This document shows, one piece after another, positions 24,921 through 42,103 of a DNA stretch of 44,532 nt (positions are counted from its first letter, which is position 1; each line of letters begins with the position of its first letter). The DNA lies in the sequence record OX457022, one strand, 5' to 3'. The notes beneath the pieces are model-generated. The model worked only from the letters and a program-made list of their open reading frames with translations, was not told the origin of the DNA and searched no databases. Position numbers and translations under genes: made by a program. The DNA is from Escherichia phage vB_EcoP-CC1.

Positions 24921-24963
24921 AGGAATATTATAGGATAATATAGGATTACCTAGGTTATATAGG
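24921..24963. repeat. periodic AGG-containing array (TAGG at 24931, 24941, 24951, 24960)
   Basis: AT-rich; 9-10 bp spacing; followed by hairpin GGTGTAC-TCCT-GTACACC (24978-24995). Confidence 0.8.
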
Positions 24964-25037
24964 TGTACCTTAGTATGGGTGTACTCCTGTACACCTATTC
25001 TTACTTGCTATTTACTTATACGTATAAGGAGTATTAG

Positions 25038-25319
25038 ATGGCTAATGATTATAGTAATCAGCCCTTAACTGGTCGCTATGACCGTAAACAGATTACACCA
25101 ACTAGTGAAGCATTAATGCTCCCTGTTGTTACAGAGGAGTCTATTAAGAAGAAAGCCAATGTTATCAATGATGCAACCAAATCTGGTAAACAGAAAGCAG
25201 CAATGGTGTGTCGTCCTGTAGGTGGCACTCTTGAGATTGCCATTGCTACTGGTAGCAAAGAGGATGCAGATTGGTTGTCTGTTAAAATGGATGGCGTTGG
25301 TTTTATTACACCGGCTTAA
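25038..25319 (+). CDS. hypothetical protein, paralog 1 of 3 (SGKQK...IAIATGS motif)
   Basis: 93 aa; strong RBS AAGGAG; shares LSGKQKxAMV...IAIAxGS...DxW block with next two ORFs. Confidence 0.6.
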   Translation: MANDYSNQPLTGRYDRKQITPTSEALMLPVVTEESIKKKANVINDATKSGKQKAAMVCRPVGGTLEIAIATGSKEDADWLSVKMDGVGFITPA

Positions 25320-25336
25320 TAAAAGGAGAAGATAAT

Positions 25337-25624
25337 ATGTCTAAGTATGGCGATGCAGGTACGACTACTGGTCAGGCTTTTCGTGTAAAAGCAGTACAAA
25401 CTATTGCAACTGCAATCCCTATGCCTATCGTGGCAGAAGCTGACCTTAAAAAGAAAGATCATCCAATTAATATTGAACACCTATCTGGTAAGCAGAAAGG
25501 TGCTATGGTGGTTGTAGATAAAGGAGATAATAGCCTTTATATTGCTATTGCACGTGGTTCTGCACCAACTGACCAGTGGGATGTAACTACTATGGAAGCT
25601 GTACCTGTAACACCAGGAGCTTAA
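25337..25624 (+). CDS. hypothetical protein, paralog 2 of 3
   Basis: 95 aa; RBS AAAGGAGA; same conserved block. Confidence 0.6.
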   Translation: MSKYGDAGTTTGQAFRVKAVQTIATAIPMPIVAEADLKKKDHPINIEHLSGKQKGAMVVVDKGDNSLYIAIARGSAPTDQWDVTTMEAVPVTPGA

Positions 25625-25625
25625 T

Positions 25626-26315
25626 ATGCTGGGAGTAACAGGACAACGCAATAAGAATGTAGCCACCAAAGTAGTGGCTGATTTAGCTACTGCTGCTACT
25701 GTCGAGGAATTACGAGACACACATAACTCTATTAACCGTGCTGACCTTTCTGGTAAACAAGAAGGTTCTGTTGTTCTTGTTAAGAAAGAGGATGGCAACT
25801 ATTCTATCTTTGTAGCAACAGGTAGCAAGCCTACTGATGTTTGGAAAGAGTTGTCTCCAACAATACCAGAGCAAGAGATGCCTGCTGAATATATTGATAT
25901 GGTTGATATTCAAATTCATCAAGACTCTGCAAGTAACTTACGTATGGATTCTTCTCGCACGAGCTTAATACAAACACCAATGTGGGATACTGAAGGTGAA
26001 TTGCTATTCCGTAATACCCTGAGCGCAACATGTTCTTGTACCATTCTTGCTGACGGTGCATCTGGTGTTCGTCAGGATTTTAATTTTAAGATTAATGGAA
26101 TCTTAGAGCAAGAAGAGCAGTATTATGACATTGACACTCTTATGTGCTCTATTCATTCTGCAACAACAACTAATGGTCTTACACTGTGTATGCCAGATGT
26201 TAAGAGCGCAAAGACCAATAAGATGGTAGTAAAGGTCGACACTATGCAGTCATTAACAATGAGTTTTGATCTTAACTTCCTTGTTGAATGGACGTCACCT
26301 ACGAGGTTACTATAA
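25626..26315 (+). CDS. hypothetical protein, paralog 3 of 3 with ~150-aa C-terminal extension
   Basis: 229 aa; N-terminal 80 aa carries the shared block (LSGKQEGSVVLV...IFVATGSKPTDVW). Confidence 0.6.
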   Translation: MLGVTGQRNKNVATKVVADLATAATVEELRDTHNSINRADLSGKQEGSVVLVKKEDGNYSIFVATGSKPTDVWKELSPTIPEQEMPAEYIDMVDIQIHQDSASNLRMDSSRTSLIQTPMWDTEGELLFRNTLSATCSCTILADGASGVRQDFNFKINGILEQEEQYYDIDTLMCSIHSATTTNGLTLCMPDVKSAKTNKMVVKVDTMQSLTMSFDLNFLVEWTSPTRLL

Positions 26316-26659
26316 TGCTAAACGAATACTTCAAGCGTAAAGAATTTGCTTGCCGTTGTGGGTGCGGTACATCCACTGTTGATGCTGAGTTACTACAGGT
26401 AGTAACAGATGTGCGTGAGCACTTTGGTGCTCCTGTGGTTATTACTTCTGGTCATCGTTGCGCCAAGCACAATGCTAATGTAGGTAGAGCTAAGAACTCC
26501 ATGCATCTTACTGGTAAGGCTGCTGACATTAAGGTCACTGGTGTTAGCCCAATGGAGGTACGTGCGTACCTATGCAATAAGTACACTGATAAGTATGGCA
26601 TTGGTGCTTATCCTACTTTTACACATATCGACGTTAGAGGTAACAAAGCACGATGGTAG
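26315..26659 (+). CDS. endolysin, peptidase M15-like (zinc D-Ala-D-Ala carboxypeptidase family)
   Basis: 114 aa from ATG 26315 (TAATG overlap with upstream stop); motif SGHRCAKHNANVGRAKNSMHLTGKAADI resembles M15 His/Asp zinc-binding signature. Confidence 0.6.
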   Translation: MLNEYFKRKEFACRCGCGTSTVDAELLQVVTDVREHFGAPVVITSGHRCAKHNANVGRAKNSMHLTGKAADIKVTGVSPMEVRAYLCNKYTDKYGIGAYPTFTHIDVRGNKARW

Positions 26660-26767
26660 GTTGTGTTGCATGGTGTGAACGCATGGTTGCTAAGGCTTCA
26701 GAGGAAGGCAACTATGCAGATTGGCAGAACTATTCGACTTTATTAGCTCAATGGAAAGGGAGGTGCA

Positions 26768-26917
26768 ATGAAAAAGCTGTTTAAGTCTAAGAAGGTTGTA
26801 GGTGCACTAGTTGCACTAGCAATTGCCCTTGTTTCTGTAGGACTTGGTGTAGACCTTGGTTCTGGCACTGAGGGGTCTGTGACAGATGTAGTTTGCCAAG
26901 TAATTACTTGTGAATAA
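26768..26917 (+). CDS. small membrane protein (49 aa)
   Basis: Below ORF-track cutoff; GGGAGG RBS; basic N-terminus then hydrophobic span VVGALVALAIALVSVGLGV. Confidence 0.4.
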   Translation: MKKLFKSKKVVGALVALAIALVSVGLGVDLGSGTEGSVTDVVCQVITCE

Positions 26918-27131
26918 ATTTCTTGAAGCACTTGCAGGTCTTATTGGCCTGCTTGTTGCAGCTAAGAAGAAACAGGAAGAGAAGGAGGCACAAAGTGAAG
27001 CGAATCATGTTGGTGATGACCCTGCTGATTGGTTCGCTAATCACTTCCGGGTGTCAGCAGGCGTTACCAGAGAAGAAGGGTGTGAAGCCGCTGAAGCCGA
27101 CGCTGACGGCAGTTTACGAAGTGGACGATAA
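26910..27131 (+). CDS. putative i-spanin-like protein (Rz-like), short
   Basis: 73 aa; N-terminal hydrophobic segment FLEALAGLIGLLVAA then charged region; shorter than typical Rz. Confidence 0.35.
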   Translation: MNKFLEALAGLIGLLVAAKKKQEEKEAQSEANHVGDDPADWFANHFRVSAGVTREEGCEAAEADADGSLRSGR

Positions 27132-27204
27132 GGTCTGCTTCAGTAAGACTGACGCTACACAATTAGGTTTGTATATTCTTTCGCTAGAACGCGGGTATAA
27201 TTAA
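26923..27204 (+). CDS. putative o-spanin lipoprotein (Rz1-like)
   Basis: Arg-rich N-terminus, hydrophobic segment and lipobox-like LITSGC (functional start may be M at 27004), comparable to T7 gp18.7 ATISGC; overlaps previous ORF in another frame. Confidence 0.5.
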   Translation: MKHLQVLLACLLQLRRNRKRRRHKVKRIMLVMTLLIGSLITSGCQQALPEKKGVKPLKPTLTAVYEVDDKVCFSKTDATQLGLYILSLERGYN

Positions 27205-27233
27205 TACATATCTTTATGTATCAATGTCCTACG

Positions 27234-27255
27234 ATTTACTGGACACTATAGAAGG
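27234..27255 (+). promoter_or_regulatory. phage RNAP promoter class I (ATTTACTGGACACTATAGAAGG), +1 G at 27251
   Basis: Family consensus 83 nt upstream of second tailspike ATG. Confidence 0.8.
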
Positions 27256-27333
27256 AGAGATAGTGCCGTTCATTTGAGCGGCCTATTACTAGCCAATCTT
27301 CATGGTGAGGGTTGGGAAGTAATAGGAGATAAC

Positions 27334-28857
27334 ATGGCTAAACTAACGAGAGTCACTGACTGGCTTGTTAAGGTAAAGTCCAGACTCACTGGTGCAGTAG
27401 AGCGACTGCTTGAAGATAAGTTAAATGACACGGTTAGTGTTAAGGACTTCGGTGCTAAGGGTGACGGTGTGACAGACGACACACAAGCATTTGCTGCCGC
27501 CTCAGCCGCATCGCCTCAAGGTGTTTATGTGCCTGACGGAACATATTTATTACCAGAAGATATTAATGGCAGGTTCTATGGTTCTGGTAAACGCATCAAG
27601 GCTGTAGGTGATGGTGGTATTCCTTTTACCAATGTAGCTCAGTCACATAGTAACCTAATATTAGGATATGATGCTGCAAAGGATTACACGGACGAAGGGA
27701 AAGGCAACCAATTAGTATTACTTGGCCCAAGCTCCGGTCGTAACCTTACCACTGGTACTAACTCCATTGTGGTAGGTGTTGGTGGCCTATCGGGTGATAC
27801 ATTAGAAGATGCACTAACAGATAAATCACCTTTCACTGGTACAGAGATTATTAGCATTGGTATCAATGCTCTTAAGAAAACTACCACTGGTAACAACATG
27901 ATTGGTATTGGTCGTGATGCCCTGAACGAGTGTAAGGATGGAAGATTCAACGTAGCTATAGGTATGTCTGCTTTGCAGCAGCTACACTCTGGTGAGGCTA
28001 ACGTAGCAATAGGGCGTTCAGCCGGTATGCGTACTGGCATCTTCACTAACGAAGATGGTGTACGATTAGGCTATACAAAATGTAGCGGTAATACCTTAAT
28101 AGGTAACGCGGCTGGTCGTGAATTGAAGTCAGGTAATCATAACACCGCCGTAGGCAATGGTGCTATGCGAGGTGTCAGTTCTGATATTAATCCATATACT
28201 GGCACTCTAGAGGGTAATTTTAATACAGCTATTGGTGTTGATACCTTAAACTCCTTAGCATCTGGTGAGTTGAACACCATGATTGGCGCAAGGGCTGGGC
28301 GTAAATTACCTAGTGGCTCTGGTAACATCTTCATCGGTGCGGATGCAGGTGCAGGTATTAACATTGAAAAGTCTAACACTCTCATTATTAACAACCACAC
28401 TGGCTTACCTTTCGTAGAAGGTATTATGGATGGTGCTCAGAGTGAGAATAACTACTTACGTGTTGATGGAAGTGTAGCACCTCAGATTGATAACACAAGA
28501 ACTTGTGGTCAGTCTAGCCGTAGATGGCAGACTGTCTTTTCTACCAATGGTGTTATCCAGACATCGGATGGACGATGCAAGGATGTCTACGATATTGCCA
28601 AGACGGAGTACATGGCTGGTCTAGAGTTATCTTCTAGTATGATTAAGTTCAAATGGACAGATACTAAAGAAGATAAGTATCACTTCGGTTGTCTGGCACA
28701 AGAGGTCATGCTGATTATGGAGAAACATGGGTTAAACCCTCTGGATTATTCCCTCGTTACCTATGATGCTGAAGCAGATATGTATGGTGTTAACTATGCA
28801 GAATTGTCTTGCTTCTGTATCGCAGCAATGTCCAATCATGTACTAGGCAGTGCGTAA
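27334..28857 (+). CDS. tailspike with pectate-lyase-like beta-helix and C-terminal S74-like chaperone domain
   Basis: 507 aa from ATG 27334 (AGGAGA RBS); motif VKDFGAKGDGVTDDTQAF typical of pectate-lyase-fold depolymerases; C-terminal SDGRCKDVYDI chaperone-like motif. Confidence 0.8.
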   Translation: MAKLTRVTDWLVKVKSRLTGAVERLLEDKLNDTVSVKDFGAKGDGVTDDTQAFAAASAASPQGVYVPDGTYLLPEDINGRFYGSGKRIKAVGDGGIPFTNVAQSHSNLILGYDAAKDYTDEGKGNQLVLLGPSSGRNLTTGTNSIVVGVGGLSGDTLEDALTDKSPFTGTEIISIGINALKKTTTGNNMIGIGRDALNECKDGRFNVAIGMSALQQLHSGEANVAIGRSAGMRTGIFTNEDGVRLGYTKCSGNTLIGNAAGRELKSGNHNTAVGNGAMRGVSSDINPYTGTLEGNFNTAIGVDTLNSLASGELNTMIGARAGRKLPSGSGNIFIGADAGAGINIEKSNTLIINNHTGLPFVEGIMDGAQSENNYLRVDGSVAPQIDNTRTCGQSSRRWQTVFSTNGVIQTSDGRCKDVYDIAKTEYMAGLELSSSMIKFKWTDTKEDKYHFGCLAQEVMLIMEKHGLNPLDYSLVTYDAEADMYGVNYAELSCFCIAAMSNHVLGSA

Positions 28858-28870
28858 GCACTGCTTTTCT
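28847..28870 (+). terminator. hairpin terminator overlapping tailspike stop (GCAGTGC-GUAA-GCACTGC then TTTTCT)
   Basis: 7-bp perfect stem, GNRA-type loop containing the stop codon, U-rich tail. Confidence 0.55.
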
Positions 28871-28937
28871 CGCAACTTCCCTTGAAGCAATCTAGCGATA
28901 CCTTCAAGGGAATAGCTCAAGAAAGCAAGGAGGTTTG

Positions 28938-29087: not shown

Positions 29088-29221
29088 TCAGGTTAATATC
29101 TTAGTGTACACAAGGGCAAACCTATGATAGCTCACAGCACACCTCTGAGTGCCGCTCTGGATTCTATGAATTGTTCCCTGACTATCTAGGTTTGCTCTTA
29201 GTATATTACAAAGGAGGTCAC

Positions 29222-29377
29222 ATGATTTGGATCCACACGTATGGTGTAGGGTCATTCAAGAAGAATGTACTCAGGAAGATCCATGAGTCCGAGGAATCAG
29301 CCTTAGCCAGCCAGAAGGTACTTGGTGGTACTATCCAGTGCTACATGAAGAAGCCACAAGGTTTTGACTTAGTGTAA
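29222..29377 (+). CDS. hypothetical small protein (51 aa)
   Basis: AAAGGAGG RBS 5 nt upstream of ATG 29222 (ORF track begins 29171). Confidence 0.4.
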   Translation: MIWIHTYGVGSFKKNVLRKIHESEESALASQKVLGGTIQCYMKKPQGFDLV

Positions 29378-29430
29378 CCAAAGGTGGTCACAAAGTAACC
29401 AAAGTCAAAATTTTGATGTAGGCGTGTGTC

Positions 29431-29475
29431 AGCCCTCTCGCCCTCGCCCTCGCCGGGTTGTCCCCATAGGGTGGC
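29431..29475. other. GC-rich block in terminal region ((CCCTCG)n then CCCCATAGGG)
   Basis: Non-coding; CCCCATAGGG resembles the CCCCCATAGGGGG element recalled near the T7 left end; candidate terminal-repeat/packaging region. Confidence 0.4.
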
Positions 29476-30092
29476 CTGAGGGAATCCGTCTTCGACGGGC
29501 AGGGCTGATGTACTCCTTGTACTAGCTTAGTAGTACACAAGGGCTGGCCTTTTGTTTTGCCATGTACTAGCAAGGTGGAACGCTGGAGAGCGCCTAGGAC
29601 GGCCTAGGGATGGGCTTAGTGGTGGACAAGGTGATTGCCTTAGTGAAGCCTCTTAGTGCATTCCTGAGGCCATTCAGGGCGTTTATGAGATATTGACAGG
29701 GTGTGCGTGGGTGGGCTATCTGTTCGTTTCGTTCACTCCGCTTGCGCTACGTTCACTCGCTCACGTGTACCTTAGGTTGTTCCTTGATGGATAGCTTAGG
29801 TTAGCCTTAGTGGACTACCTTAGTTATAACCTTAGTGCTTATCTTAGTAATAGCTTAGTAATGTACCTTAGTAAGTCTTAGTGTCTTCTCTTAGTGATTG
29901 CACATGCAAGCATGTAAGATGCCATTAGGTCGCGGTCGGTAGACCGCTAAAGAAAGAGAATAGTAATAAGATGCAGTAGGAGGAACACCAGAAACCTAGC
30001 CAACCTAACCTATCCTAGCTCTGTATCTATTGCTTTTCCTTAGTCTAACATGTGAGACAACCTAGATTTATCTTAGTGATGATAGCTTAGTG

Positions 30093-30121
30093 TTGACAAG
30101 GCCATCTCAATGTAATACTAT
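30093..30121 (+). promoter_or_regulatory. candidate host sigma70 early promoter (TTGACA-17-TACTAT)
   Basis: Perfect -35, 5/6 -10, 17-nt spacer; upstream of early small ORFs. Confidence 0.45.
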
Positions 30122-30193
30122 TCATCACGTAGGCAGCACTGAGGTGCTTAGTAGCCAGCTAGTAAGGCATACGAAGAGACTAGTGCCTGCATT

Positions 30194-30209
30194 GCTCTTT
30201 AACAATTTG
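30194..30209 (+). promoter_or_regulatory. RNase-III-site-like element GCTCTTTAACAATTTG (copy 1)
   Basis: 16-mer repeated exactly at 30805; resembles recalled T7 R0.3 site GCTCTTTAACAATCTGG. Confidence 0.4.
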
Positions 30210-30263
30210 CTTAGTGTAACCTATGTATGCCGTGGTTAATTACTTATTGAATGAGGGTTAACT

Positions 30264-30734: not shown

Positions 30735-30743
30735 ATTAACTAT

Positions 30744-31639: not shown

Positions 31640-31703
31640 TGAGCCTATAGCCTACTTAAGTGGGCTATGTGAACACCATTCATTAACTCAAAAGGTGACT
31701 ATT

Positions 31704-32627
31704 ATGACTACTGAAAACACCCTCCTGTCTGTTCGTGAAGCTGCAACCGCTGAGATCAAGCAACACTTAGACAATATCGGCACTTCTTACATCAAAGTTG
31801 GCGCTTGTCTTAATGAGTTACGCGGTGACTTTGAAGGTCAAAAAGACTTTTTGGCTTATGTAGAATCAGAATTTGGAATCAAGAAAGCACAATGTTACAA
31901 GCTGATGAGTGTAGCCCGTGTCTTTGAAGGCGATGATCGCTTTAAAGGCGTGGCGATGCGTGTAATGCTGGCACTTGTTCCTTTCGCTGATGAAAATATC
32001 ATCATGGAGAAAGCCGCAGAACTTGCCGCAGCGGGCAAGCTGGACACTAATGCCGTAAATGCCCTGATTGATCCTAAGAAAGAGACAAAGGCCGAGACGG
32101 TACAATCTAAGGCTGAGGCGGTAAAACCGCAGGAGAATGCGACTGAGGCCGCAGAAACTATGCAAGGACATGCGACCTTTGAGGATTTCATCTTAGAGAA
32201 GGCGAAAGAGGAATTACAAAGTGTGCCGCCAGTAAGTGAGTCGGGTAACGACGAATCCGCACCGTGGGAAGATGAAAGCAAGCCGGAAGCGCCAAAGGCC
32301 GCGCCACTGGATAACACGGCTAACACGGAGAACGCCGCTATGTCTGGCCTACTGGCACAAATTAAGGCACTGACTGAGCAATTACAGGCAGCTAACGACC
32401 GCATCGCCGCCCTAACCAGTGCACGGGAAGGTAAGAAAGCGGCTGCGCCTATGCTTCCGCAGTTTAAATCCTCTTGCTTCTACGCTCGCTTAGGCTTGAG
32501 CGCCGAGGAAGCAACGAAGAAAACAGCAGTGAATAAGGCACGCCGTGAACTGGTTAAACTAGGGTATGGTGAAGGTCATGAGGCATGGCCTTTGATCTCT
32601 GAGGCAGTAGAAGAATTAACTAAGTAA
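31704..32627 (+). CDS. hypothetical early protein (307 aa), Ala/Glu/Lys-rich C-terminal half
   Basis: ATG 31704 with AAAGG upstream (ORF track start is GTG 31695); occupies slot between ocr and RNAP; no kinase motifs recognised. Confidence 0.6.
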   Translation: MTTENTLLSVREAATAEIKQHLDNIGTSYIKVGACLNELRGDFEGQKDFLAYVESEFGIKKAQCYKLMSVARVFEGDDRFKGVAMRVMLALVPFADENIIMEKAAELAAAGKLDTNAVNALIDPKKETKAETVQSKAEAVKPQENATEAAETMQGHATFEDFILEKAKEELQSVPPVSESGNDESAPWEDESKPEAPKAAPLDNTANTENAAMSGLLAQIKALTEQLQAANDRIAALTSAREGKKAAAPMLPQFKSSCFYARLGLSAEEATKKTAVNKARRELVKLGYGEGHEAWPLISEAVEELTK

Positions 32628-32690: not shown

Positions 32691-35318
32691 ATGCAAGATC
32701 TACACGCTATTCAGCTTCAGCTTGAGGAAGAAATGTTTAACGGCGGTATTCGTCGCTTTGAAGCAGACCAACAACGCCAGATTGCATCAGGTAATGAATC
32801 CGATACGGCATGGAATCGTCGCCTGTTGTCGGAGCTTATCGCACCTATGGCGGAAGGTATTCAGGCTTATAAGGAAGCCTACGAAGGAAAGAAAGGACGC
32901 GCACCGCGTGCACTGGCCTTCATTAACTGCGTAGAGAACGAAGTGGCAGCATATATCACGATGAAGATCGTAATGGATATGCTTAACACAGATGTAACCT
33001 TGCAAGCCATAGCAATGAATGTAGCTGATCGCATCGAAGATCAAGTACGCTTCAGCAAGCTGGAAGGCCACGCCGCCAAATACTTTGAAAAAGTTAAGAA
33101 GTCACTCAAGGCAAGTAAGACTAAATCATATCGCCATGCGCACAACGTAGCGGTAGTGGCTGAGAAGTCAGTAGCTGACCGTGACACTGATTTCTCCCGC
33201 TGGGAGGCGTGGCCTAAAGATACCTTACTGCAAATCGGTATGACCTTGCTAGAAATACTGGAGAATAGCGTATTCTTCAATGGTCAACCTGTCTTCCTCC
33301 GCACCTTGCGCACTAATGGTGGCAAGCATGGTGTTTACTACTTACAGACCAGTGAGCACGTAGGGGAGTGGGTTACAGCATTTAAAGAACATGTAGCGCA
33401 ACTTAGTCCGGCCTATGCACCTTGCGTCATTCCTCCGCGCCCTTGGGTGTCCCCTTTTAATGGTGGGTTTCATACTGAGAAGGTGGCAAGTCGCATCCGT
33501 TTGGTAAAAGGCAACCGTGAGCACGTCCGTAAGCTGACCAAAAAGCAAATGCCAGCAGTTTATAAGGCTGTTAATGCTTTACAGGCCACTAAGTGGCAAG
33601 TTAACAAAGAAGTTTTGCAGGTAGTAGAAGACGTTATCCGTCTCGACCTTGGTTATGGTGTACCTTCCTTTAAACCACTCATCGACCGCGAGAACAAGCC
33701 GGCTAACCCAGTGCCGTTAGAATTTCAACACTTGCGAGGCCGCGAACTGAAGGAAATGTTAACGCCGGAACAATGGCAAGCCTTCATCAACTGGAAAGGT
33801 GAATGCACCAAGCTGTATACCGCTGAGACTAAGCGCGGAAGTAAGTCGGCGGCAACCGTTCGCATGGTAGGACAAGCGCGCAAATACAGCCAGTTTGATG
33901 CGATTTATTTCGTGTATGCACTGGATAGCCGCTCACGCGTTTATGCGCAATCTAGCACACTCTCACCGCAATCAAACGACCTAGGCAAGGCGTTACTGCG
34001 TTTTACCGAAGGGCAGCCGCTAAATAGCTCTGAGGCGCTTAAATGGTTTTTGGTGAACGGGGCGAATAACTGGGGTTGGGATAAGAAGACTTTCGACGTG
34101 CGCACCGCTAACGTACTGGACGGCGAGTTTCAAGATATGTGCCGCGACATTGCAGCGGATCCTCTGACCTTTACTCAATGGGTAAATGCCGATTCACCTT
34201 ATGGATTCCTTGCATGGTGCTTTGAGTATGCTCGTTATTTGGATGCACTGGATGAAGGAACACAAGATCAGTTTGTGACGCATTTACCTGTTCATCAAGA
34301 TGGTAGCTGTTCTGGCATCCAGCACTACAGTGCTATGCTACGCGACGAAGTGGGTGCGAAGGCGGTAAACCTTAAACCATCCGACTCGCCTCAAGATATT
34401 TATGGAGCGGTTGCGCAGGTTGTTATCCAGAAGAACTACGCCTACATGAATGCAGATGATACAGAAACTTTCACATCTGGAAGCGTAACACTTACAGGTG
34501 CAGAACTGCGCAGCATGGCTAACGCGTGGGATATGATTGGGATCACTCGCGGCTTAACCAAAAAGCCAGTAATGACCTTGCCATACGGCTCCACCCGCTT
34601 AACCTGCCGTGAATCGGTGATTGATTATATCGTTGATTTGGAAGAAAAAGAGGCGCAGAGAGCTGTTGCCGAAGGGCGGACGGCTAATCCTGTGCACCCT
34701 TTTGATAATGACCGTAAAGACTATCTGACACCTGGTGCAGCTTACAACTATATGACCGCTTTAATTTGGCCTTCTATCTCTGAGGTTGTTAAAGCGCCTA
34801 TAGTGGCGATGAAAATGATTCGCCAGCTTGCACGATTCGCAGCTAAAAGAAACGAAGGGTTAGAGTACACCTTACCCACTGGTTTCATCTTGCAGCAAAA
34901 GATAATGGCTACCGACATGCTACGCGTATCCACTTGCTTGATGGGTGAAATCAAGATGAGTCTACAGATTGAGACTGATGTAGTGGATGAAACGGCAATG
35001 ATGGGCGCTGCCGCTCCTAACTTTGTTCACGGTCATGATGCGAGTCACCTTATTCTGACTGTATGTGACCTAGTTGACAAAGGTATTACATCAATTGCAG
35101 TTATTCATGACTCTTTCGGAACTCATGCAGGCCGTACATCAGATCTTCGTGATAGCTTAAGGGCAGAAATGGTTAAGATGTATCAAGGGCGTAACGCCTT
35201 GCAGCAATTGCTGGATGAGCATGAAGAACGTTGGTTGGTGGACACTGGCATTCAAGTGCCGGAACAAGGGGAGTTTAACCTTGAAGAGATATTAGTTTCT
35301 GACTATTGTTTTGCATAA
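32691..35318 (+). CDS. single-subunit DNA-directed RNA polymerase (SP6-type)
   Basis: 875 aa; N-terminus [32 protein letters not shown] and C-terminus ending DYCFA agree with recalled SP6 RNAP; AGGAG RBS. Confidence 0.95.
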
Positions 35319-35391: not shown

Positions 35392-35409
35392 TGTCTCACG
35401 CGTGAGACT
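35392..35409. repeat. palindrome family member TGTCTCAC-GC-GTGAGACT
   Basis: Perfect 16-bp palindrome GTCTCACGCGTGAGAC; 2 nt upstream of promoter at 35411. Confidence 0.85.
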
Positions 35410-35410
35410 T

Positions 35411-35432
35411 ATTTACCGGACACTATAGGATA
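35411..35432 (+). promoter_or_regulatory. phage RNAP promoter class I (ATTTACCGGACACTATAGGAT), +1 G at 35428
   Basis: Family consensus with C at -11. Confidence 0.8.
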
Positions 35433-35463
35433 ACCGTCGGAGACGGAAAGAGAAGGGAAGATA

Positions 35464-35513
35464 AGGATATAAAGGAAGTAATAGGTATTAAAGGTTGTAT
35501 AGGTTTACCTAGG
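35464..35513. repeat. periodic AGG array (AGG at 35464, 35473, 35483, 35492, 35501, 35511)
   Basis: Six AT-rich (T)A(A)AGG units at 9-10 bp period between two promoters downstream of RNAP gene; candidate replication origin. Confidence 0.8.
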
Positions 35514-35572
35514 AATACTTATTACCTTCTTCCTTCCTCTTCTTACTACCTAGAGGAAGGGCAGACCTAGGT

Positions 35573-35590
35573 TGTCTCACATGTGAGACT
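35573..35590. repeat. palindrome family member TGTCTCAC-AT-GTGAGACT
   Basis: 4 nt upstream of promoter-like sequence at 35595. Confidence 0.85.
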
Positions 35591-35594: not shown

Positions 35595-35616
35595 ATTTAC
35601 CGGACAGTATAGATAA
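35595..35616 (+). promoter_or_regulatory. variant phage promoter (ATTTACCGGACAGTATAGATAAG), +1 G at 35612
   Basis: C to G change at -5 relative to family consensus; directly upstream of gp1.1-like gene. Confidence 0.45.
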
Positions 35617-35642: not shown

Positions 35643-35771
35643 ATGCGTAACTTTGAGAAGATGACCCGTAAAGCTAACCGTTTTGACATGGAAGAAGGGC
35701 AGACGAGAGGCAAGAAGCTGAATAAACCTGTCCGTGACCGTGCATCTAAACGAGCAGCGTGGGAGTCCTAA
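35643..35771 (+). CDS. T7 gp1.1-like small basic protein
   Basis: 42 aa MRNFEKMTRKANRF...GKKLNKPVRDRASKRAAWES matches recalled T7 gene 1.1 MRNFEKMTKRSNRN...GRKLNKTKRDRSHKRSWEGQ; GGAGA RBS. Confidence 0.6.
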   Translation: MRNFEKMTRKANRFDMEEGQTRGKKLNKPVRDRASKRAAWES

Positions 35772-35774
35772 GTT

Positions 35775-37763
35775 ATGGCTATTATTCAGAACGTACCGTG
35801 CCCTGCCTGCCAAAAGAATGGACACGATAAATCCGGCAACCATCTTATGATATTTGAGGATGGCGCTGGTTACTGTAACCGTGGTCATTTCCATGATAAT
35901 GGCAAACCTTATTACCATAAGCCAGAGGGCGGCATCGAGATAACCGAATTGCCCATTACTGGCAATATCAAATACACACCTTCTCAATTCAAAGAAATGG
36001 AGAAGGAAGGGAAGATAAGCGACCCTAAGCTACGCGCCATCGCACTTGGTGGTATGCGTATGAAAGACCGTTGGGAGGTCATGAATGAGCAAGAAAGGGC
36101 AGACCAAGAAGCAGAGTGGAAACTTGATGTTGAATGGTTCCTCACGCTTAAGCGTAAGAACCTTGTTTCCCGACACATTCGCGGCGACATTTGCGCATTG
36201 TATGATGTACGTGTCGGACACGATGAAGAGGGTAGAGTCTCGCGGCATTACTATCCACGCTTCGAGAAAGGTGAGCTAGTAGGAGCTAAGTGTCGCACAT
36301 TACCTAAAGACTTTAAGTTTGGTCATTTAGGTAAACTCTTTGGTATGCAAGATCTTTTCGGGATGAATACTTTGTCTCACGTGTTAGACAAGGGAAGACG
36401 AAAGGATTGCTTGCTTATTGTTGGTGGGGAACTGGATGCGCTAGCAGCGCAGCAGATGCTCCTTGATTCTGCCAAGGGTACTAAGTGGGAAGGTCAACCT
36501 TACCATGTATGGTCTGTTAACAAAGGGGAGTCTTGCCTTGAAGAGATTGTGCAGAACCGTGAACACATCGCCCAATTCAAGAAGATTATTTGGGGCTTCG
36601 ATGGGGATGAGGTAGGGCAGAAGCAGAACCAGCAAGCGGCTCGCCTGTTCCCTGGCAAATCTTATATCCTTGAATACCCCTCTGGTTGCAAAGATGCCAA
36701 CAAGGCATTGATGGCTGGTAAAGCCAAAGAATTTGTGGATGCTTGGTTTAATGCAAAGTCATCTGATGAAGTCTTTGGTAGCCAGATTAAATCTATCGCA
36801 TCTCAAAGGGATAAGCTCAAGGCTGCACGTCCAGAACAAGGGCTGTCATGGCCTTGGCCTAAGCTAAACAAGGTAACACTGGGTATCCGTAAGAACCAGC
36901 TTATCATTATAGGTGCAGGCTCTGGTGTTGGTAAGACAGAGTTCCTCCGTGAAGTGGTAAAGCATCTCATCGAAGAACACGGTGAATCTGTAGGTATCAT
37001 TTCTACAGAAGACCCGATGGTCAAAGTGTCCCGTGCTTTTATCGGTAAGTGGATTGATAAGCGTATTGAACTACCGCCAACCAATGACCCGAAAGAAGAT
37101 GGCTACCGTGAGGTGTTCGACTATACAGAGGAAGAGGCTAATGCTGCCATTGATTATGTAGCTGATACAGGGAAGCTGTTTGTAGCTGACCTAGAGGGTG
37201 ACTATTCGATGGAGAAGGTAGAGCAAACTTGCCTAGAGTTTGAGGCTATGGGTATTTCTAATATCATCATTGATAACTTAACGGGGATTAAATTAGATGA
37301 GCGTGCTTTTGGTGGGAAGGTTGGTGCACTTGATGAATGCGTCAAACGAATTGGTACTATCAAAGACCGACATGCGGTTACGATTTTCCTTGTCTCTCAC
37401 CTTACACGCCCTCCGGCAAACCGTACCCAACACGAAGAAGGTGGCGAAGTTATCCTTTCTGACTTCCGAGGCTCAGGCGCTATCGGATTCTGGGCATCTT
37501 ACGCCTTGGGGATTGAGCGTAATACAAGAGCTGAAACGCTTGATGAACGGACTACCACGTACATCTCATGTGTCAAAGACCGCGACCAAGGTATCTACAC
37601 TGGAACCAAGGTCATGCTTAAGGGTGACATTCAAACCGGACGTTTAATGGAACCACAAGCCCGTACTAAGTCATTTGATACAGGTGAAGCAAGGCAACAA
37701 GAAGTACCTGATTTACCGGACACTATAGAAGAGACAACCTTTGACGATGAACAGGAGTTTTGA
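35775..37763 (+). CDS. DNA primase/helicase (T7 gp4-like)
   Basis: N-terminal zinc-binding CPACQKNG...GYCNRGHFHD, central primase-type region, helicase Walker A GAGSGVGKT; acidic C-terminus DDEQEF. Confidence 0.9.
   Translation: MAIIQNVPCPACQKNGHDKSGNHLMIFEDGAGYCNRGHFHDNGKPYYHKPEGGIEITELPITGNIKYTPSQFKEMEKEGKISDPKLRAIALGGMRMKDRWEVMNEQERADQEAEWKLDVEWFLTLKRKNLVSRHIRGDICALYDVRVGHDEEGRVSRHYYPRFEKGELVGAKCRTLPKDFKFGHLGKLFGMQDLFGMNTLSHVLDKGRRKDCLLIVGGELDALAAQQMLLDSAKGTKWEGQPYHVWSVNKGESCLEEIVQNREHIAQFKKIIWGFDGDEVGQKQNQQAARLFPGKSYILEYPSGCKDANKALMAGKAKEFVDAWFNAKSSDEVFGSQIKSIASQRDKLKAARPEQGLSWPWPKLNKVTLGIRKNQLIIIGAGSGVGKTEFLREVVKHLIEEHGESVGIISTEDPMVKVSRAFIGKWIDKRIELPPTNDPKEDGYREVFDYTEEEANAAIDYVADTGKLFVADLEGDYSMEKVEQTCLEFEAMGISNIIIDNLTGIKLDERAFGGKVGALDECVKRIGTIKDRHAVTIFLVSHLTRPPANRTQHEEGGEVILSDFRGSGAIGFWASYALGIERNTRAETLDERTTTYISCVKDRDQGIYTGTKVMLKGDIQTGRLMEPQARTKSFDTGEARQQEVPDLPDTIEETTFDDEQEF
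37711..37732 (+). promoter_or_regulatory. phage RNAP promoter class I embedded in primase/helicase 3' end (ATTTACCGGACACTATAGAAGAG), +1 G at 37728
   Basis: Exact consensus inside coding sequence (encodes DLPDTIEET). Confidence 0.7.
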
Positions 37764-37924
37764 TGGAAATTATTAAACCATTATTAAATATCGGCGTTGA
37801 CATCCTATTCATGCTTATGCTAGCAAACTATGCTGCACGATATGGATTCAAGCCAGCTGTGAAACTTATCGTTGCATCTGGTTTTCTTATGTCAATGTTC
37901 TTTATTGTAACACACCTTATCTAG
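37763..37924 (+). CDS. hypothetical small hydrophobic protein (53 aa)
   Basis: Below ORF-track cutoff; TGATG overlap with primase stop; two predicted hydrophobic segments. Confidence 0.35.
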   Translation: MEIIKPLLNIGVDILFMLMLANYAARYGFKPAVKLIVASGFLMSMFFIVTHLI

Positions 37925-37940
37925 TGTATTTATCAGGGCT

Positions 37941-37958
37941 TGTCTCACATGTGAGACA
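37941..37958. repeat. 18-bp perfect palindrome TGTCTCACATGTGAGACA
   Basis: 17 nt after stop of small ORF; identical to copy at 15571. Confidence 0.9.
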
Positions 37959-37996
37959 GGCTCTTATTAAGTACATTAAATAACTGGAGATTGATT

Positions 37997-38719
37997 ATGT
38001 ATAAATTAGTATTGAATGCAGGTGATTATGTTCGTAACATCAATGAAGCCTCACGTCGTTATCGTTGCCGTGGTGTGGTTAGCTATGTAAGTGAGAACAT
38101 GTACCATGTGGAGTACAGCAACGGCATTAAACAATCTTATCATAAGAAGTTAGCACATAACTACCTTGAGAAGATTGGCGAGACAAGCAATCAATGCAAG
38201 TGTGTACATGATGAGGTTTGCGATAAGTGCAAACGTCAGGCAATTAAAGCCTTTACCTTTGCGCAACGTTATGGTTCTATGTATGGTGCTGGTCACAAGA
38301 CCGTTGCAGAAGCAGCTTGGAAGACATTACAGTTTGAGCATTCAAATGGACGACGCACCACAATTAAGAAAGAGCGCCGCAATGTCATCACTGGTAAGAC
38401 TCAAAGTGAGATGATTAAGCAATGTGGCACTGCATTAGGTGTTACACAGTTCAATACACGTGCTCTAGGTAAATCTACAGGACAAGCTATGTTTAAGATT
38501 GGTGAAGCCATGATGCACCCAAATGTACCTGTGCGAATCATGGATGTTGACCATGCAATCACAGAACATGGTACAACACGGCGTGTAGTTAATAATCATT
38601 TTGCCGACACTATAGAAGATATTATCCGTAAGCAAGGATTGAAAGGTCTTCACATCTTAAATGGTGAAGAGTTGCTGTACCTTCCTATTGTTACCGAAGA
38701 AACCTACGTGAATATCTAA
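37997..38719 (+). CDS. hypothetical protein (240 aa) with Cys cluster
   Basis: GGAGA RBS 6 nt upstream of ATG 37997; CKCVHDEVCDKC cluster; between primase and DNA polymerase. Confidence 0.55.
   Translation: MYKLVLNAGDYVRNINEASRRYRCRGVVSYVSENMYHVEYSNGIKQSYHKKLAHNYLEKIGETSNQCKCVHDEVCDKCKRQAIKAFTFAQRYGSMYGAGHKTVAEAAWKTLQFEHSNGRRTTIKKERRNVITGKTQSEMIKQCGTALGVTQFNTRALGKSTGQAMFKIGEAMMHPNVPVRIMDVDHAITEHGTTRRVVNNHFADTIEDIIRKQGLKGLHILNGEELLYLPIVTEETYVNI
38588..38609 (+). promoter_or_regulatory. weak promoter-like sequence inside coding region (ATTTTGCCGACACTATAGAAG)
   Basis: Core CACTATAGAAG intact but 3 mismatches at -13, -12, -10; probably non-functional. Confidence 0.2.
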
Positions 38720-38729
38720 GGAGTTAATC

Positions 38730-38918
38730 ATGACTAAAGTATTGATTTATATGAGAGGTGCTAATAAATGCTATGCAGTTGTAGCACCTGATGGGGTCAA
38801 GCCTTACGGTACTTCAAAAGGATTAGCATTAATAGGTGCTAGTCGCAGTGCAAGTTTCCAAATGGAACTTTTTGGTCATTGGACTGAAAAAAAGAATTCC
38901 GTGAAGAGTTTAATGTAA
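38730..38918 (+). CDS. hypothetical protein (62 aa)
   Basis: AAGGAG RBS 7 nt upstream. Confidence 0.5.
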   Translation: MTKVLIYMRGANKCYAVVAPDGVKPYGTSKGLALIGASRSASFQMELFGHWTEKKNSVKSLM

Positions 38919-38939
38919 TTGGCAGCTTTATGGTGAAAC

Positions 38940-39137
38940 ATGCAAAATAAACATAGCCTTAAGATGTTTGATGGTCACGAAGACCTGCAAGCACAAATTA
39001 CCAACCAAGCCTTCCTGTTTGCACAGTTAACTATGGCTGAAGCAAAGAAGAACAGCCTTACTCGTGAGCAGATTATCAAGGAAGGTAGCCGTGGTGCTAC
39101 TCGTCGTACCAAGAACCACAGAAGTGGTGCTCGCTAG
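38940..39137 (+). CDS. hypothetical protein (65 aa)
   Basis: ORF only; weak RBS. Confidence 0.35.
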   Translation: MQNKHSLKMFDGHEDLQAQITNQAFLFAQLTMAEAKKNSLTREQIIKEGSRGATRRTKNHRSGAR

Positions 39138-39153
39138 TCGATAAGTCAAGGGT

Positions 39154-39171
39154 TGTCTCACGTGTGAGACA
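39154..39171. repeat. palindrome family member TGTCTCAC-GT-GTGAGACA
   Basis: 17 nt after preceding stop; flanked by AAGGG...CCTTT. Confidence 0.9.
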
Positions 39172-39201
39172 GCCTTTCATCATATTGATTGGAGGTGCAT
39201 T

Positions 39202-39309
39202 ATGCCACGTGATTATGATTCTGATTGGGACTACTATGACTCAATGAATCCAAAACCCGAACGTTCAGATGATTACTACGAAACAGAGGCAATGTATGAA
39301 AACTATTGA
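39202..39309 (+). CDS. hypothetical small acidic protein (35 aa)
   Basis: Below ORF-track cutoff; GGAGGTG RBS; Asp/Tyr-rich; overlaps DNA polymerase start. Confidence 0.4.
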   Translation: MPRDYDSDWDYYDSMNPKPERSDDYYETEAMYENY

Positions 39310-41842
39310 TTGGAAGAAGGAAGCAGAAGGCCGCATCCTCGTCATGGACGCAGAAGCTAAAGGTCTGCTTGATGCTATCCGCTACGGTCATCGTGAAGAT
39401 GTACACATCATTTGCTGCATGGACTTGCTCACCACTGAGGAGTTCCTCTTCTTCGACCCATATGAGATGCGTGACCCTGAAGCAAGAGAACGCCTGAAGG
39501 AGTGGGAAGGCCATCAAGATGGTGACTTGGTTGACGGTGTTAACTTCCTGAAACACTGTGAAGCTATCGTGTCACAGAACTTCCTAGGGTATGACGGCCT
39601 CCTTTTTGAGAAAGCCTTCCCTGATATCTGGAAAGGTTTTAACTATACCGAAAGGCGCGGCAAGGGCAGACTCCGTGCCGACCTGTGTCCTGTGCGAGTC
39701 ATGGACACGCTGGTGATGAGCCGCCTGTTAAACCCCGATAGACGCCTTCCTCCGCAAGCATATGCCAAAGGTATGGGTAACGTCGCCCCTCATTCAATTG
39801 AGGCGCACGGCATCCGTATAGGACGCTATAAGCCGGAGAATGAGGACTGGTCTAAACTAACTGACCACATGGTTCACCGTGTCCGCGAGGACGTGGCAAT
39901 CGGTCGTGACCTTTTCCTGTGGCTGTACAATGGAGAGTGGACGGAGCATAAACGCCGTGGCGTGAATAAACGCACTGGCCTAGGCATTGAGACAGCCTTC
40001 CACATGGAGTCTATTGTGGCGCTGGAGATGAGCCGTCAGGCAGAGCGTGGATTCCGTCTGGATATTGACAAAGCACTAGCGCGATGCGAAGAACTGGACG
40101 CTAAGATTGATGAGACAGTCGCAGCGTTCCGCCCTCACATGCCTATGCGTATCAAGTCTAAACCTTTTAAACCGGAAGAAAAGAATGAAGTATGCCAACG
40201 CGCAAATGAGTATGGAGCTAGCAACAATATACCTACTGTCCTTGACCCCTCACACTTTCTTCATGCCGAGAGACGAGGAGATCGCAAGACAGTATGGAGT
40301 GTCACTACTAAGTCTGGTGATTGGTCGGCTAGCGTCAAGAAAGACTTTCCTCACCTTAGAGGAAACCGTAATGACACGCCAAGCATCAAGTGGATTGGCG
40401 CTTACTCGCCTGTTACTTTCGAAGAGATTCCCTTGGGTAACAGGGATACAGTTAAGCAAGTGCTCTATGATTATGGATGGAAAGGTGTTGAATTTAACGA
40501 TACCGAGCAAGCGCATCTCGATGAGCATGGCGTATTACCCAAACCTTGGAGTGGAAAGATAAATGAGAAATCCCTTACTTTATGGCAAGAAAGAGCCGCA
40601 CGTGAAGGTAAAACAGTACCAGATTGGTGCTTGGGTATCGCTGCATGGTACATACTCGTATCCCGTCGTGGTCAGATCCTCAACCGTGGTGACGTTGAAG
40701 CCTTCGATCAGAAGGGGGCGTGGCCTTCGCAAGCTGGTGTACGAAAGTGTCGCGGCCTTATACCTGTAGCCTTTAACAAGGAATTAGGAATCAATGCGCA
40801 ACAATACTACGAGAGGTATGGGTATTGGCCTACGTCTGACAAGGATGACGGAGAGTGGCGTGTGCCAGCTATTGCTATTAGTATTGGCACTTCTACGTTC
40901 CGTATGCGTCATCGCAATGTGGTTAATATTCCTGCCCGTGGCTTGTATCCTTTACGTGATTTATTCATAGCAGGTAAAGGTAAGCTAATCCTTGGTTGTG
41001 ATGGTGCAGGTCTTGAACTACGTGTACTTTCTCACTTCATGAATGACCCTGAGTACCAAGATATTGTACTGCATGGCGATATACATACTCATAACCAGAT
41101 GAAGGCGGGTCTTCCTAAGCGTGATATGGCGAAGACATTTATATATGCCTTCCTTTACGGCTCTGGTATAGCTAACCTTGCAGCAGTGTGCGGTGTTACT
41201 GAGGAAGAAATGAAGGAAGTTGTGGCAAGATTCGAGATTGAATTACCATCCCTTGCACGTCTTCGTGAGAATGTTATCGCACAAGGCAACAAGTTTGGAT
41301 ACTTACAAGCACCTGACGGGCATTGGGGTCGCATCCGTATGTCTGGTGGAGAACTTAAAGAGCACACTATGCTTAATGTATTACTCCAAATGACTGGCTC
41401 TTTGTGTATGAAATACGCATTGGTCAAAGCGTTTGCAGTGATGCGCAAGGAAGGTGTGGCCTTAGATAGTATGGGACACCCTTGTGGTGTAGCTAACGTG
41501 CACGATGAAATCCAGATGGAAGTACCTGAAGAAGAGGTATTGTATCTTAACTACGACCTACCTTTCACCTTAGAGGGGTTTGAAACAGAGAAGGCTGCTG
41601 TGAAAGCAGTATTCGATGCAGAGGAGAAACGTGTTCATGTGGATTCTGAAGGACGTATGTGGTCTGCTGCAAATCTCATTAGTGTTGATGCTGCTGCTGG
41701 TGTACTTCATTGCCAGCGTCGTTATCACCGCGCAGGGCATATCATTGCCGACGCCATGACTTGGGCTGGTCAGTATCTGAAGATGCGTTGCCCGATGGCA
41801 GGCGAGTATAAGATTGGCGCAAGCTGGAAGGAAACGCACTAG
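39296..41842 (+). CDS. DNA polymerase (family A, T7 gp5-like)
   Basis: 848 aa from ATG 39296 (ORF track 39269); polymerase-type motifs incl. HDEIQMEV; position after primase-helicase. Confidence 0.9.
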   Translation: MKTIDWKKEAEGRILVMDAEAKGLLDAIRYGHREDVHIICCMDLLTTEEFLFFDPYEMRDPEARERLKEWEGHQDGDLVDGVNFLKHCEAIVSQNFLGYDGLLFEKAFPDIWKGFNYTERRGKGRLRADLCPVRVMDTLVMSRLLNPDRRLPPQAYAKGMGNVAPHSIEAHGIRIGRYKPENEDWSKLTDHMVHRVREDVAIGRDLFLWLYNGEWTEHKRRGVNKRTGLGIETAFHMESIVALEMSRQAERGFRLDIDKALARCEELDAKIDETVAAFRPHMPMRIKSKPFKPEEKNEVCQRANEYGASNNIPTVLDPSHFLHAERRGDRKTVWSVTTKSGDWSASVKKDFPHLRGNRNDTPSIKWIGAYSPVTFEEIPLGNRDTVKQVLYDYGWKGVEFNDTEQAHLDEHGVLPKPWSGKINEKSLTLWQERAAREGKTVPDWCLGIAAWYILVSRRGQILNRGDVEAFDQKGAWPSQAGVRKCRGLIPVAFNKELGINAQQYYERYGYWPTSDKDDGEWRVPAIAISIGTSTFRMRHRNVVNIPARGLYPLRDLFIAGKGKLILGCDGAGLELRVLSHFMNDPEYQDIVLHGDIHTHNQMKAGLPKRDMAKTFIYAFLYGSGIANLAAVCGVTEEEMKEVVARFEIELPSLARLRENVIAQGNKFGYLQAPDGHWGRIRMSGGELKEHTMLNVLLQMTGSLCMKYALVKAFAVMRKEGVALDSMGHPCGVANVHDEIQMEVPEEEVLYLNYDLPFTLEGFETEKAAVKAVFDAEEKRVHVDSEGRMWSAANLISVDAAAGVLHCQRRYHRAGHIIADAMTWAGQYLKMRCPMAGEYKIGASWKETH

Positions 41843-42026
41843 TGGATAGATTAGATATTGTTTGCTTGTTCTTTACCTTCTTTCTTGTCTTTCTTATGCT
41901 TGCTTGTTATGGAAGTATTCAGGTAAATATACCTGATGAAGAGGAAGGATACGACTGAGTTATACTCAAGGTCACTTACGAGTGGCCTTTATGAATAACT
42001 TACTCCTACTTATTTTGTCTAACATG

Positions 42027-42048
42027 ATTTACTGGACACTATAGAAGG
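42027..42048 (+). promoter_or_regulatory. phage RNAP promoter class I (ATTTACTGGACACTATAGAAGG), +1 G at 42044
   Basis: Exact consensus downstream of DNA polymerase gene. Confidence 0.85.
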
Positions 42049-42103
42049 AAAGCCTAGGTAATCTAGGTTTATAAGGTAGTATAGGTAATTAAGTAAATAT
42101 AGG
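42046..42103. repeat. periodic AGG array (AGG at 42046, 42056, 42065, 42074, 42083, 42101)
   Basis: AT-rich TAGG/TAAGG units at 9-10 bp period in leader of 125-aa gene. Confidence 0.8.

Follow-up and report, generated by a model that had tools for sequence, protein, structure and literature searches.

Among the closest described systems to the elements considered here are the replication origins of phage T7. There, replication starts at the promoter pair phi1.1A/phi1.1B, the promoters phiOR and phi6.5 serve as secondary origins, and a T7 promoter is essential at every origin (PMC8373140, citing Rabkin and Richardson 1988); the results and discussion of the former paper favor priming of the R-loop type (PMC8373140). 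The related phages SP6, K1-5, and K1E are classic models and candidates for phage therapy. To our knowledge, the replication origins of these three phages have never been mapped, nor do we know of any sequence-specific element beyond the promoter in the origins of T7; in the current view, a promoter and adjoining AT-rich DNA suffice for origins of the T7 supergroup. Here, we analyze a 44,532-nt stretch of DNA from Escherichia phage vB_EcoP-CC1 (sequence record OX457022; hereafter the window), which belongs to the SP6/K1E/K1-5 group (Autographiviridae, Molineuxvirinae, Vectrevirus) and shows 100% identity to the public record OX638290.1 (Escherichia phage vB_EcoP-CC2). The window contains three arrays of short AGG-centered units repeated every 9–10 nt, each lying just downstream of a phage promoter; two of the three stand at positions equivalent to T7 origins and are good, if unproven, origin candidates. 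The candidate elements, three in number, are precisely located, conserved, and amenable to mutation; no description of them was found in the literature that could be searched, which did not extend to the original genome papers of SP6 and K1-5.

Three phased AGG arrays and their positions relative to T7 origins

A dynamic-programming scan of both strands of the window (89 kb) for AGG units spaced by 8–11 nt returned only three chains of at least four units, which start at 24921, 35454, and 42046 and comprise 5, 7, and 5 units, respectively. First-order Markov simulations give a chance expectation of 0.29 chains of at least four units and 0.007 chains of at least five. The same three loci come out on top in an unbiased scan of all 3-mers, for which the simulated expectation per genome, taking any 3-mer, is about one chain of at least five units and 0.02 of at least six. 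The AT content of the arrays is 70–72%. The arrays are also linked to promoters: the window has 14 matches to the SP6-type promoter consensus, exclusively on the + strand, and arrays follow three of these (+1 at 24899, 35428, and 42044), all free of mismatches to the consensus, with the remaining 11 promoters devoid of an array. A first-pass annotation, made from the letters of the window, had reported three AGG arrays downstream of three phage promoters, and this observation is confirmed, the sequences being directly readable and the only such chains in the window. Several of its details have to be amended. The repeat arrays stand, but with 5, 7, and 5 units rather than four to six, and with a spacing of 9–11 nt where 9–10 bp had been given, the mean being 9.5 and not 10–10.5; the unit, given as (T)A(A)AGG, instead has the core H-AGG-W with the consensus (T)AGGT(A). 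Likewise, a start about 20–40 nt from the promoter +1 holds for the copies at 24.9 kb (+23) and 35.4 kb (+27) but not for that at 42.0 kb (+3).

We refer to the arrays by the gene that they follow, viz., T-side (large terminase subunit, TerL), R-side (RNA polymerase), and D-side (DNA polymerase). Their modules comprise the following features:

22985..24880, + strand: large terminase subunit gene (TerL), annotated 'Terminase, large subunit gp19' in OX638290; its stop lies 3 nt before the promoter
24883..24899, + strand: T-side promoter TTTACTGGACACTATAG, +1 at 24899, 0 mismatches to the consensus; positional analogue of T7 phiOR
24921..24963, + strand: T-side array, five AGG at 24921, 24932, 24942, 24952, and 24961 (spacing 11, 10, 10, 9)
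24967..24998, + strand: CCTTAGTA motif, then GC hairpin GGGTGTAC-TCCT-GTACACCT, closing the T-side array; conserved (CCTTAGT motif)
32691..35318, + strand: phage RNA polymerase gene (open reading frame list and annotation)
35393..35408, + strand: palindrome GTCTCACGCGTGAGAC, directly upstream of promoter P1; a covarying palindrome stands at the equivalent place in other genera
35412..35428, + strand: R-side promoter P1 TTTACCGGACACTATAG, +1 at 35428, 0 mismatches to the consensus
35434..35446, + strand: predicted 5' hairpin CCGTC-GGA-GACGG, +7 to +19 of the P1 transcript
35454..35513, + strand: R-side array, seven AGG at 35454, 35464, 35473, 35483, 35492, 35501, and 35511
35521..35550, + strand: CCT-rich pyrimidine tract, able to form a long imperfect hairpin with the 5' half of the R-side array (predicted)
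35574..35589, + strand: second palindrome GTCTCACATGTGAGAC, directly upstream of promoter P2, as read from the sequence
35596..35612, + strand: promoter P2 TTTACCGGACAGTATAG, +1 at 35612, 1 mismatch to the consensus
35643..35771, + strand: homologue of T7 gene 1.1, 42 amino acids, MRNFEKMT... (56% identity, E=4e-13; phrog_2490)
39269..41842, + strand: DNA polymerase gene, upstream of the D-side module, in a position homologous to that in SP6 (gene 14) and K1-5
42028..42044, + strand: D-side promoter TTTACTGGACACTATAG, +1 at 42044, 0 mismatches to the consensus
42046..42105, + strand: D-side array, AGG at 42046, 42056, 42065, 42074, and 42083, then a degenerate AAG and the Shine-Dalgarno sequence AGGAG at 42101

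On the T side, the GC hairpin is followed by a pyrimidine-rich leader and then by the Shine-Dalgarno sequence and ATG (25038), and on the D side the Shine-Dalgarno AGGAG continues the phase of the array, with the ATG at 42114. The palindromes of the R side are part of a wider pattern, in which three promoters are each preceded, at a distance of a few bases, by a 16-bp palindrome of the form GTCTCAC-NN-GTGAGAC (35393–35408, 35574–35589, and ~43693–43708, the last before the promoter at 43722), with GTCCAAC-NN-GTTGGAC at the equivalent places in other genera. That the two arms vary together symmetrically is compatible with a terminator-like hairpin and also with an operator bound by a dimeric protein.

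The window is a rotated assembly of 44.5 kb with all genes on the + strand. Comparison with the terminal repeats of K1-5 and Lelliottia phage phD2B places the physical left end near 29437, and on the resulting natural map the arrays fall at ~13.6% (35.45 kb), ~28% (42.05 kb), and ~90% (24.93 kb). The homologue of T7 gp1.1 directly follows P2, so that the R-side array lies in the spacer between the RNA polymerase gene and gene 1.1, the very spacer that in T7 holds the primary origin with its two tandem promoters (phi1.1A and phi1.1B) and AT-rich region; the assignment of this copy to the T7 primary-origin position in the first-pass annotation is thus borne out, with a stronger case than first stated. 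The secondary-origin position suggested for the 24.9-kb copy also holds, its promoter being located 3 nt past the TerL stop in the manner of phiOR after T7 gene 19, the large terminase gene. The D-side array after the DNA polymerase gene is without an exact T7 counterpart. Further similarity lies in the physical properties of the DNA, as a promoter followed by the least stable DNA of the genome is common to both systems. When the 50-mers of the window are ordered by nearest-neighbor energy from the least stable upward, the three arrays take places 1, 3, and 9 (top 0.2%), and the array promoters rank 1, 2, and 4 of 14 for instability of the downstream DNA; in T7, the 'replication' promoters OL, 1.1B, 6.5, and OR occupy ranks 1–4 of 17 by the same measure. 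The T7 AT-rich region, moreover, also carries repeated units, if loosely arranged, of the form T(T)AAG. A difference is that the motif of the arrays is lineage-specific, whereas T7 origins are not known to have a sequence-specific element besides the promoter.

The geometry of the arrays speaks against two properties originally ascribed to them. The helical repeat of B-DNA is 10.5 bp, exceeding the 9.5-bp period by one base pair; successive units are rotated by about -34 degrees each, amounting to ~200 degrees over the 7-unit array, and therefore do not lie along one face of the DNA as had been supposed. Intrinsic bending fares no better, given that the curvature percentiles of the arrays under a wedge model (6.5, 1.0, and 10.9) are unremarkable.

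Conservation of the arrays and their lineage-specific motifs

We compared eight complete Molineuxvirinae genomes from at least six genera, namely the window and seven relatives: SP6 (Zindervirus), K1-5, Proteus phage Pm5460 (Acadevirus), Klebsiella phage K1-ULIP33, phD2B (Tuodvirus), Erwinia phage phiEa100 (Eracentumvirus), and Klebsiella phage KPN7. Chains of at least five units are found in every one of the seven relatives, and only at the R side, after the first promoter past the RNA polymerase gene, and at the T side, after the promoter past TerL. The R-side array is kept in Vectrevirus, SP6, Pm5460, K1-ULIP33, and KPN7, and is shorter or less regular in phD2B, PP1, and phiEa100. A shorter third array at the D side occurs in Vectrevirus, K1-ULIP33, SP6, and phD2B; K1-5 and K1-ULIP33 share that of the window, whereas in SP6 and phD2B it is degenerate. 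Among IMG/VR TerL loci that extend past the gene, 26 of 26 have a T-side array of 2–8 units, and the R-side module recurs in 12 of 12 additional distinct RNA polymerase flanks. Thus, arrays and spacing alike are retained despite a DNA identity of ~70% or lower; the absence or loss of phasing in close relatives, which the first-pass annotation had named as the finding that would speak against its proposal, is not what the relatives show. The T-side array is still present downstream even where a homing-endonuclease insertion has split the TerL gene (K1-ULIP33 36859–39503 and phD2B 36141–38783), and a conserved copy of a further motif, CTTAGTR (24969 in the window), closes every T-side array.

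Across 101 units, the motif has the consensus H-AGG-W, with T in 52%, A in 29%, C in 18%, and G in 1% at position -1, T in 72%, A in 24%, and C in 0% at +3, and A in 68% and G in 6% at +4. The 86 intervals of the eight genomes are 9 nt (36), 10 nt (36), 8 nt (7), or 11 nt (7) long and average 9.5. Point mutation of AGG to ATG removes single units, so that the neighbors come to stand 20–21 nt apart, whereas gains involve whole units. An example of gain is seen in phiEa100, where a perfect 29-bp tandem repeat in five copies (40700–40830), each with three AGGT, produces a T-side array of 16 units in what looks like a recent expansion. In KPN7 and phiEa100, many units read CCAGGT instead of CTAGGT or TTAGGT, creating Dcm-type CCWGG sites, perhaps a trace left by the very-short-patch repair of the host. 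A tie of the motif to the promoter specificity region was considered and rejected, as promoters differ widely among the Molineuxvirinae genera and the motif stays AGGT.

An equivalent architecture with a different core is present in two phages of the subfamily Colwellvirinae, whose TerL proteins are 52–58% identical to those of the Molineuxvirinae: Vibrio phage AS51, with the core AGAG, and Aeromonas phage MJG, with AGTAG. In AS51, (T)AGAG(C) units follow the promoters after the RNA polymerase and TerL genes, and the post-TerL array, the top chain of its genome, is succeeded by a GC hairpin, a CT tract, and the Shine-Dalgarno sequence. MJG has AGTAG units (spacing 10, 9, 10, 10, 9, 9) at the R, D, and T positions, and an unbiased scan of that genome places these three loci ahead of all others; its post-DNA-polymerase array is a 7-unit TAG chain running in phase into the Shine-Dalgarno sequence. 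A hairpin, CCGTCG-N-AGACGG, precedes each MJG array (~5720, ~13050, and ~42298) and, in two of these three cases, is identical to the R-side hairpin of the window. Marinomonas phage CPP1m has arrays of a looser kind, built on TA(A)G. Hence, all arrays of a genome share one motif and the motif varies between lineages, with the 9–10-nt spacing remaining constant, which suggests that the repeats are probably read by a sequence-specific trans-acting partner, be it protein or nucleic acid and of phage or host origin. The module is older than the motif. Given that phiEa100 keeps AGGT at 65–69% TerL identity to other Molineuxvirinae, while AS51 and MJG differ in motif at 76%, the motif does not simply track the distance between the phages, and this weakly hints at an influence of the host.

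A candidate promoter-coupled origin module and its alternatives

Orthology, conservation, and duplex instability all strengthen an interpretation of the arrays as origins and render it plausible. We tentatively favor, at somewhat less than even chances, a T7-type promoter-coupled origin module in which the AT-rich part has turned into a phased, iteron-like array that is read by a factor. Such a module would consist of a phage promoter, sometimes a 5' hairpin, and then 5–8 iteron-like purine motifs every 9–10 nt in AT-rich DNA. The phage RNA polymerase would start at the promoter and transcribe into one of the segments of the genome that are easiest to hold open; the nascent RNA, kept in place by the rG:dC pairs at each AGG, would be taken as a primer by the phage DNA polymerase; and the helicase-primase would load on the displaced, AGG-bearing strand. 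Transcription, priming, and helicase loading of this kind, along with the existence of the partner, are what we infer from the arrangement of the loci. By the same reasoning, the 35.4-kb copy is most likely the candidate orthologue of the T7 primary origin, with the 24.9-kb (post-terminase) and 42.0-kb (post-DNA polymerase) copies as candidate secondary sites. If a specific factor does read the repeats, T7-type origins could no longer be viewed as just a promoter and AT-rich DNA, and the arrays could furnish compact orthogonal origin parts for SP6-type replication and transcription systems.

A more specific version of this proposal, which we regard as doubtful, holds that the arrays are true iterons, with a lineage- or host-specific factor of ~9.5-nt footprint per subunit binding the displaced strand or the nascent RNA and licensing exactly three promoters per genome as replication starts. 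They would then constitute the first sequence-specific origin determinant in the T7 supergroup. The organization is reminiscent of plasmid and phage iterons and of the centromere or operator repeats of ParR and omega in having 5–10 direct repeats of fixed spacing and variable copy number near a promoter or AT-rich region. However, classical iterons are 17–22 bp long, versus the 9–10-bp units with a 5–8-bp core in the window, and, in distinction to iteron and centromere systems, the arrays are situated within a transcribed leader and a cognate binding protein was not found: searches of 20 neighboring or small open reading frames against PHROGs and Pfam detected no nucleic-acid-binding domain, most of these frames being of unassigned function.

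Several observations weigh against the arrays being origins of this type. One concerns T7 itself, which has no regular chain of at least five units at its own origins; repeats are accordingly not needed for T7-type initiation, and regular 9–10-nt arrays are not a general feature of the T7 supergroup. Furthermore, the AT-rich region of the T7 origin is located after the second promoter, phi1.1B, and not between the two, the inter-promoter segment being the hairpin of the R1.1 RNase III site. The R-side array could therefore match this hairpin instead of the AT-rich region. The instability ranks of the array promoters are less clean in SP6 (1, 2, and 6 of 12) and Pm5460 (4 and 8 of 10) than in the window. 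The difference between RNA:DNA hybrid and duplex energies stands out only at 35425–35475, the T and D sides being near the 15th percentile, so that R-loop thermodynamics is rejected as a general property of the arrays. The SP6 primase site is 5'-GCA-3' (PMC5737085), a trinucleotide absent from the interior of all arrays, so that a reading of the arrays as primase sites is not supported; one GCA, at 35561–35563, lies downstream of the R-side array, inside AGGAAGGGCAGAC, which is conserved between Vectrevirus and SP6. GC skew stays positive along the whole window and does not switch at the arrays. The searchable literature yielded no replication data on SP6-like phages; the sole statement encountered, made at second hand, concerns a putative origin of SP6 located at the DNA polymerase gene (PMC4837284, citing Dobbins 2004). 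Lastly, the flanking hairpins show compensatory, G.U-tolerant changes typical of RNA function, and functions at the level of RNA or of an operator account for the same facts.

The first of these alternatives, a smaller though serious possibility, is that of a leader element acting as RNA, wherein phased single-stranded sites in the 5' untranslated RNA of three operons would be bound by an oligomeric factor of phage or host that controls stability, processing, or the timing of translation, or is itself titrated by the arrays. The arrays invariably occupy the sense strand, their first units lying between +3 and +27 of the promoter; as RNA, those of the T and D sides are for the most part predicted to remain unpaired; the D-side array is in phase with the Shine-Dalgarno sequence in both the window and MJG; a spacing of 9.5 nt is more easily reconciled with subunits that each cover such a length of a single strand than with a face of B-DNA; and the single, lineage-dependent motif per genome implies a trans-acting reader under this explanation too. 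The hairpins behave as RNA structures, with compensatory variants of the 5-bp R-side 5' hairpin in relatives (CCGTC/GACGG, CCATC/GATGG, and CCTTC/GAAGG) and with a T-side hairpin whose sequence drifts while pairing is retained in SP6, Pm5460, phiEa100, KPN7, AS51, and MJG, although these may be ordinary 5' stabilizing hairpins as on other leaders of this phage. A search of the whole window against Rfam 15 at the gathering score gave zero matches, and the arrays themselves are not predicted to be stably structured (z = -1.5, -0.07, and -1.3). As in CsrB/RsmZ GGA sponge RNAs and STAB-SD stabilizers, several GG-containing purine motifs occur in untranslated RNA; however, with A at +3 in only 24% of the units (T in 72%), GGA is infrequent and the Colwellvirinae arrays have no GG at all, arguing against a CsrA-binding sponge or leader. 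A Shine-Dalgarno or STAB-SD role is similarly disfavored, as only AGGU (<5 nt) pairs with the 16S 3' end, the flanks discourage extended pairing (G being so rare at -1 and +4), and other lineages have AGAG or AGTAG, the Vibrio and Aeromonas hosts being assumed to share the anti-Shine-Dalgarno sequence. Nor is the distance to the start codon constant, with P2 intervening on the R side and, on the T side, a hairpin and ~40 nt of further leader; the capsid leader (+1 at 7431), which is expressed more highly than any other late one, lacks an array; and no candidate RNA-binding protein emerged from the 20 reading frames searched. Should the arrays act as RNA, they would represent a new class of phased leader element in two Autographiviridae subfamilies. 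A narrower and very improbable version makes the R-side array and CCT tract an RNase III-type processing hairpin, the SP6-group counterpart of T7 R1.1, with the AGG periodicity incidental. Like R1.1, it lies between the two promoters downstream of the RNA polymerase gene and pairs a purine-rich arm with a CCUU-rich one; folding predicts a long imperfect hairpin for each of the eight genomes (z -1.3 to -4.8), the array-to-tract duplexes surpass those with shuffled tracts (z -1.3 to -2.6), and a C-to-U change in the window relative to K1-5 gives a G.U pair. But the window hairpin is much longer, with a periodic 5' arm, and its fold energy is unexceptional (z = -1.5); the 9.5-nt period has no mirror image in the CCT tract, and the three 3'-most units fall in the loop; and only one of three arrays is covered, as T-side pairing with the downstream tract is no better than shuffled (z ~0) and the D side has no partner tract.

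At the level of double-stranded DNA, a small phage protein (e.g., of ParR, omega, or RHH type) might polymerize on the ~10-bp repeats of an operator or iteron array, switching three promoters together or building a nucleoprotein complex, which we consider rather improbable. This explanation would draw on the direct repeats with a 5–8-bp core at 9–11-bp spacing in runs of 5–8 and up to 16, on the palindromic form (CCTAGG or ACCTAGGT) of about a quarter of the units and the inverted copies (CCT tracts) after the R-side array, and on the concerted change of the motif at all three loci of a genome; superhelical-filament proteins, as in ParR/parC-type complexes, also tolerate a period below 10.5 bp. 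Against it, RHH, HTH, and other DNA-binding domains went undetected in the small reading frames tested (Pfam, PHROGs), and all arrays found share one orientation relative to transcription; furthermore, the motif differs between AS51 and MJG and is constant out to the more distant phiEa100, which would require a co-evolving protein to change faster in one subfamily. Neutral origin by replication slippage in AT-rich leaders, the period being passively inherited from a duplicated unit of ~10 bp, we find barely credible. It could point to the perfect expansion in phiEa100 and to (TA)n expansions in K1-5 and L037, to the decay of units by point mutation with the rarity of indels keeping the phase, and to AGG positions that, within Vectrevirus, change only slightly less often than the spacers (judged by eye, not a computed count). 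However, it is already disfavored by conservation, as the AGG cores are kept while the spacers diverge to ~50% between genera and three syntenic sites carry arrays in two subfamilies at so low a TerL identity, and the strongly constrained flanks (G 1% at -1, C 0% at +3) and tight distribution of spacings are no more compatible with slippage.

Genome ends and neighboring genes

The physical genome end has a repeat system of its own. The direct terminal repeat region likely spans 29437–29721; it begins with (CTCGCC)x3 and is homologous to the terminal repeats of K1-5 and phD2B. ATCTGTT, a T7-type class II pause/termination signal, stands at 29715–29721, the place at which the concatemer-junction signal is found in T7. 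Around this end, 18 copies of CTTAGTR on the + strand are crowded into 1.1 kb (29100–30216), including ~12-bp tandem units at 29768–29900, and the whole window has 38 copies versus 15 expected. This cluster is probably the SP6-group counterpart of the SRL/SRR end repeats of T7. The AGG arrays resemble SRL/SRR as short motifs at intervals of roughly one turn in non-coding DNA of a T7-supergroup phage, but differ in being internal, promoter-linked, and built on another motif, the true counterpart being the CTTAGTR cluster by the terminal repeat. A role of the arrays as a terminase (pac) site is rejected on the same grounds, the end-associated repeat at 29.1–30.2 kb having a different motif. A separate duplication, in which bases 1–127 of the window are an exact copy of 44406–44532, we read as an assembler overlap (of the k=127 type) rather than biology; OX638290 is offset alike with another rotation.

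Directly after the T-side leader, 25038–25319 and 25337–25624 encode paralogous proteins of 93 and 95 amino acids, which owe the name 'acetyl-CoA acetyltransferase' solely to the label of phrog_2725 and are far too small for that enzyme. Upstream of the RNA polymerase gene, a 310-amino-acid open reading frame at 31695–32627 (+ strand), in the position of K1-5 gene 6 and SP6 gene 7, is absent from the public record, which instead has a 169-amino-acid frame at 31895–32404 on the minus strand, probably a gene-calling error.

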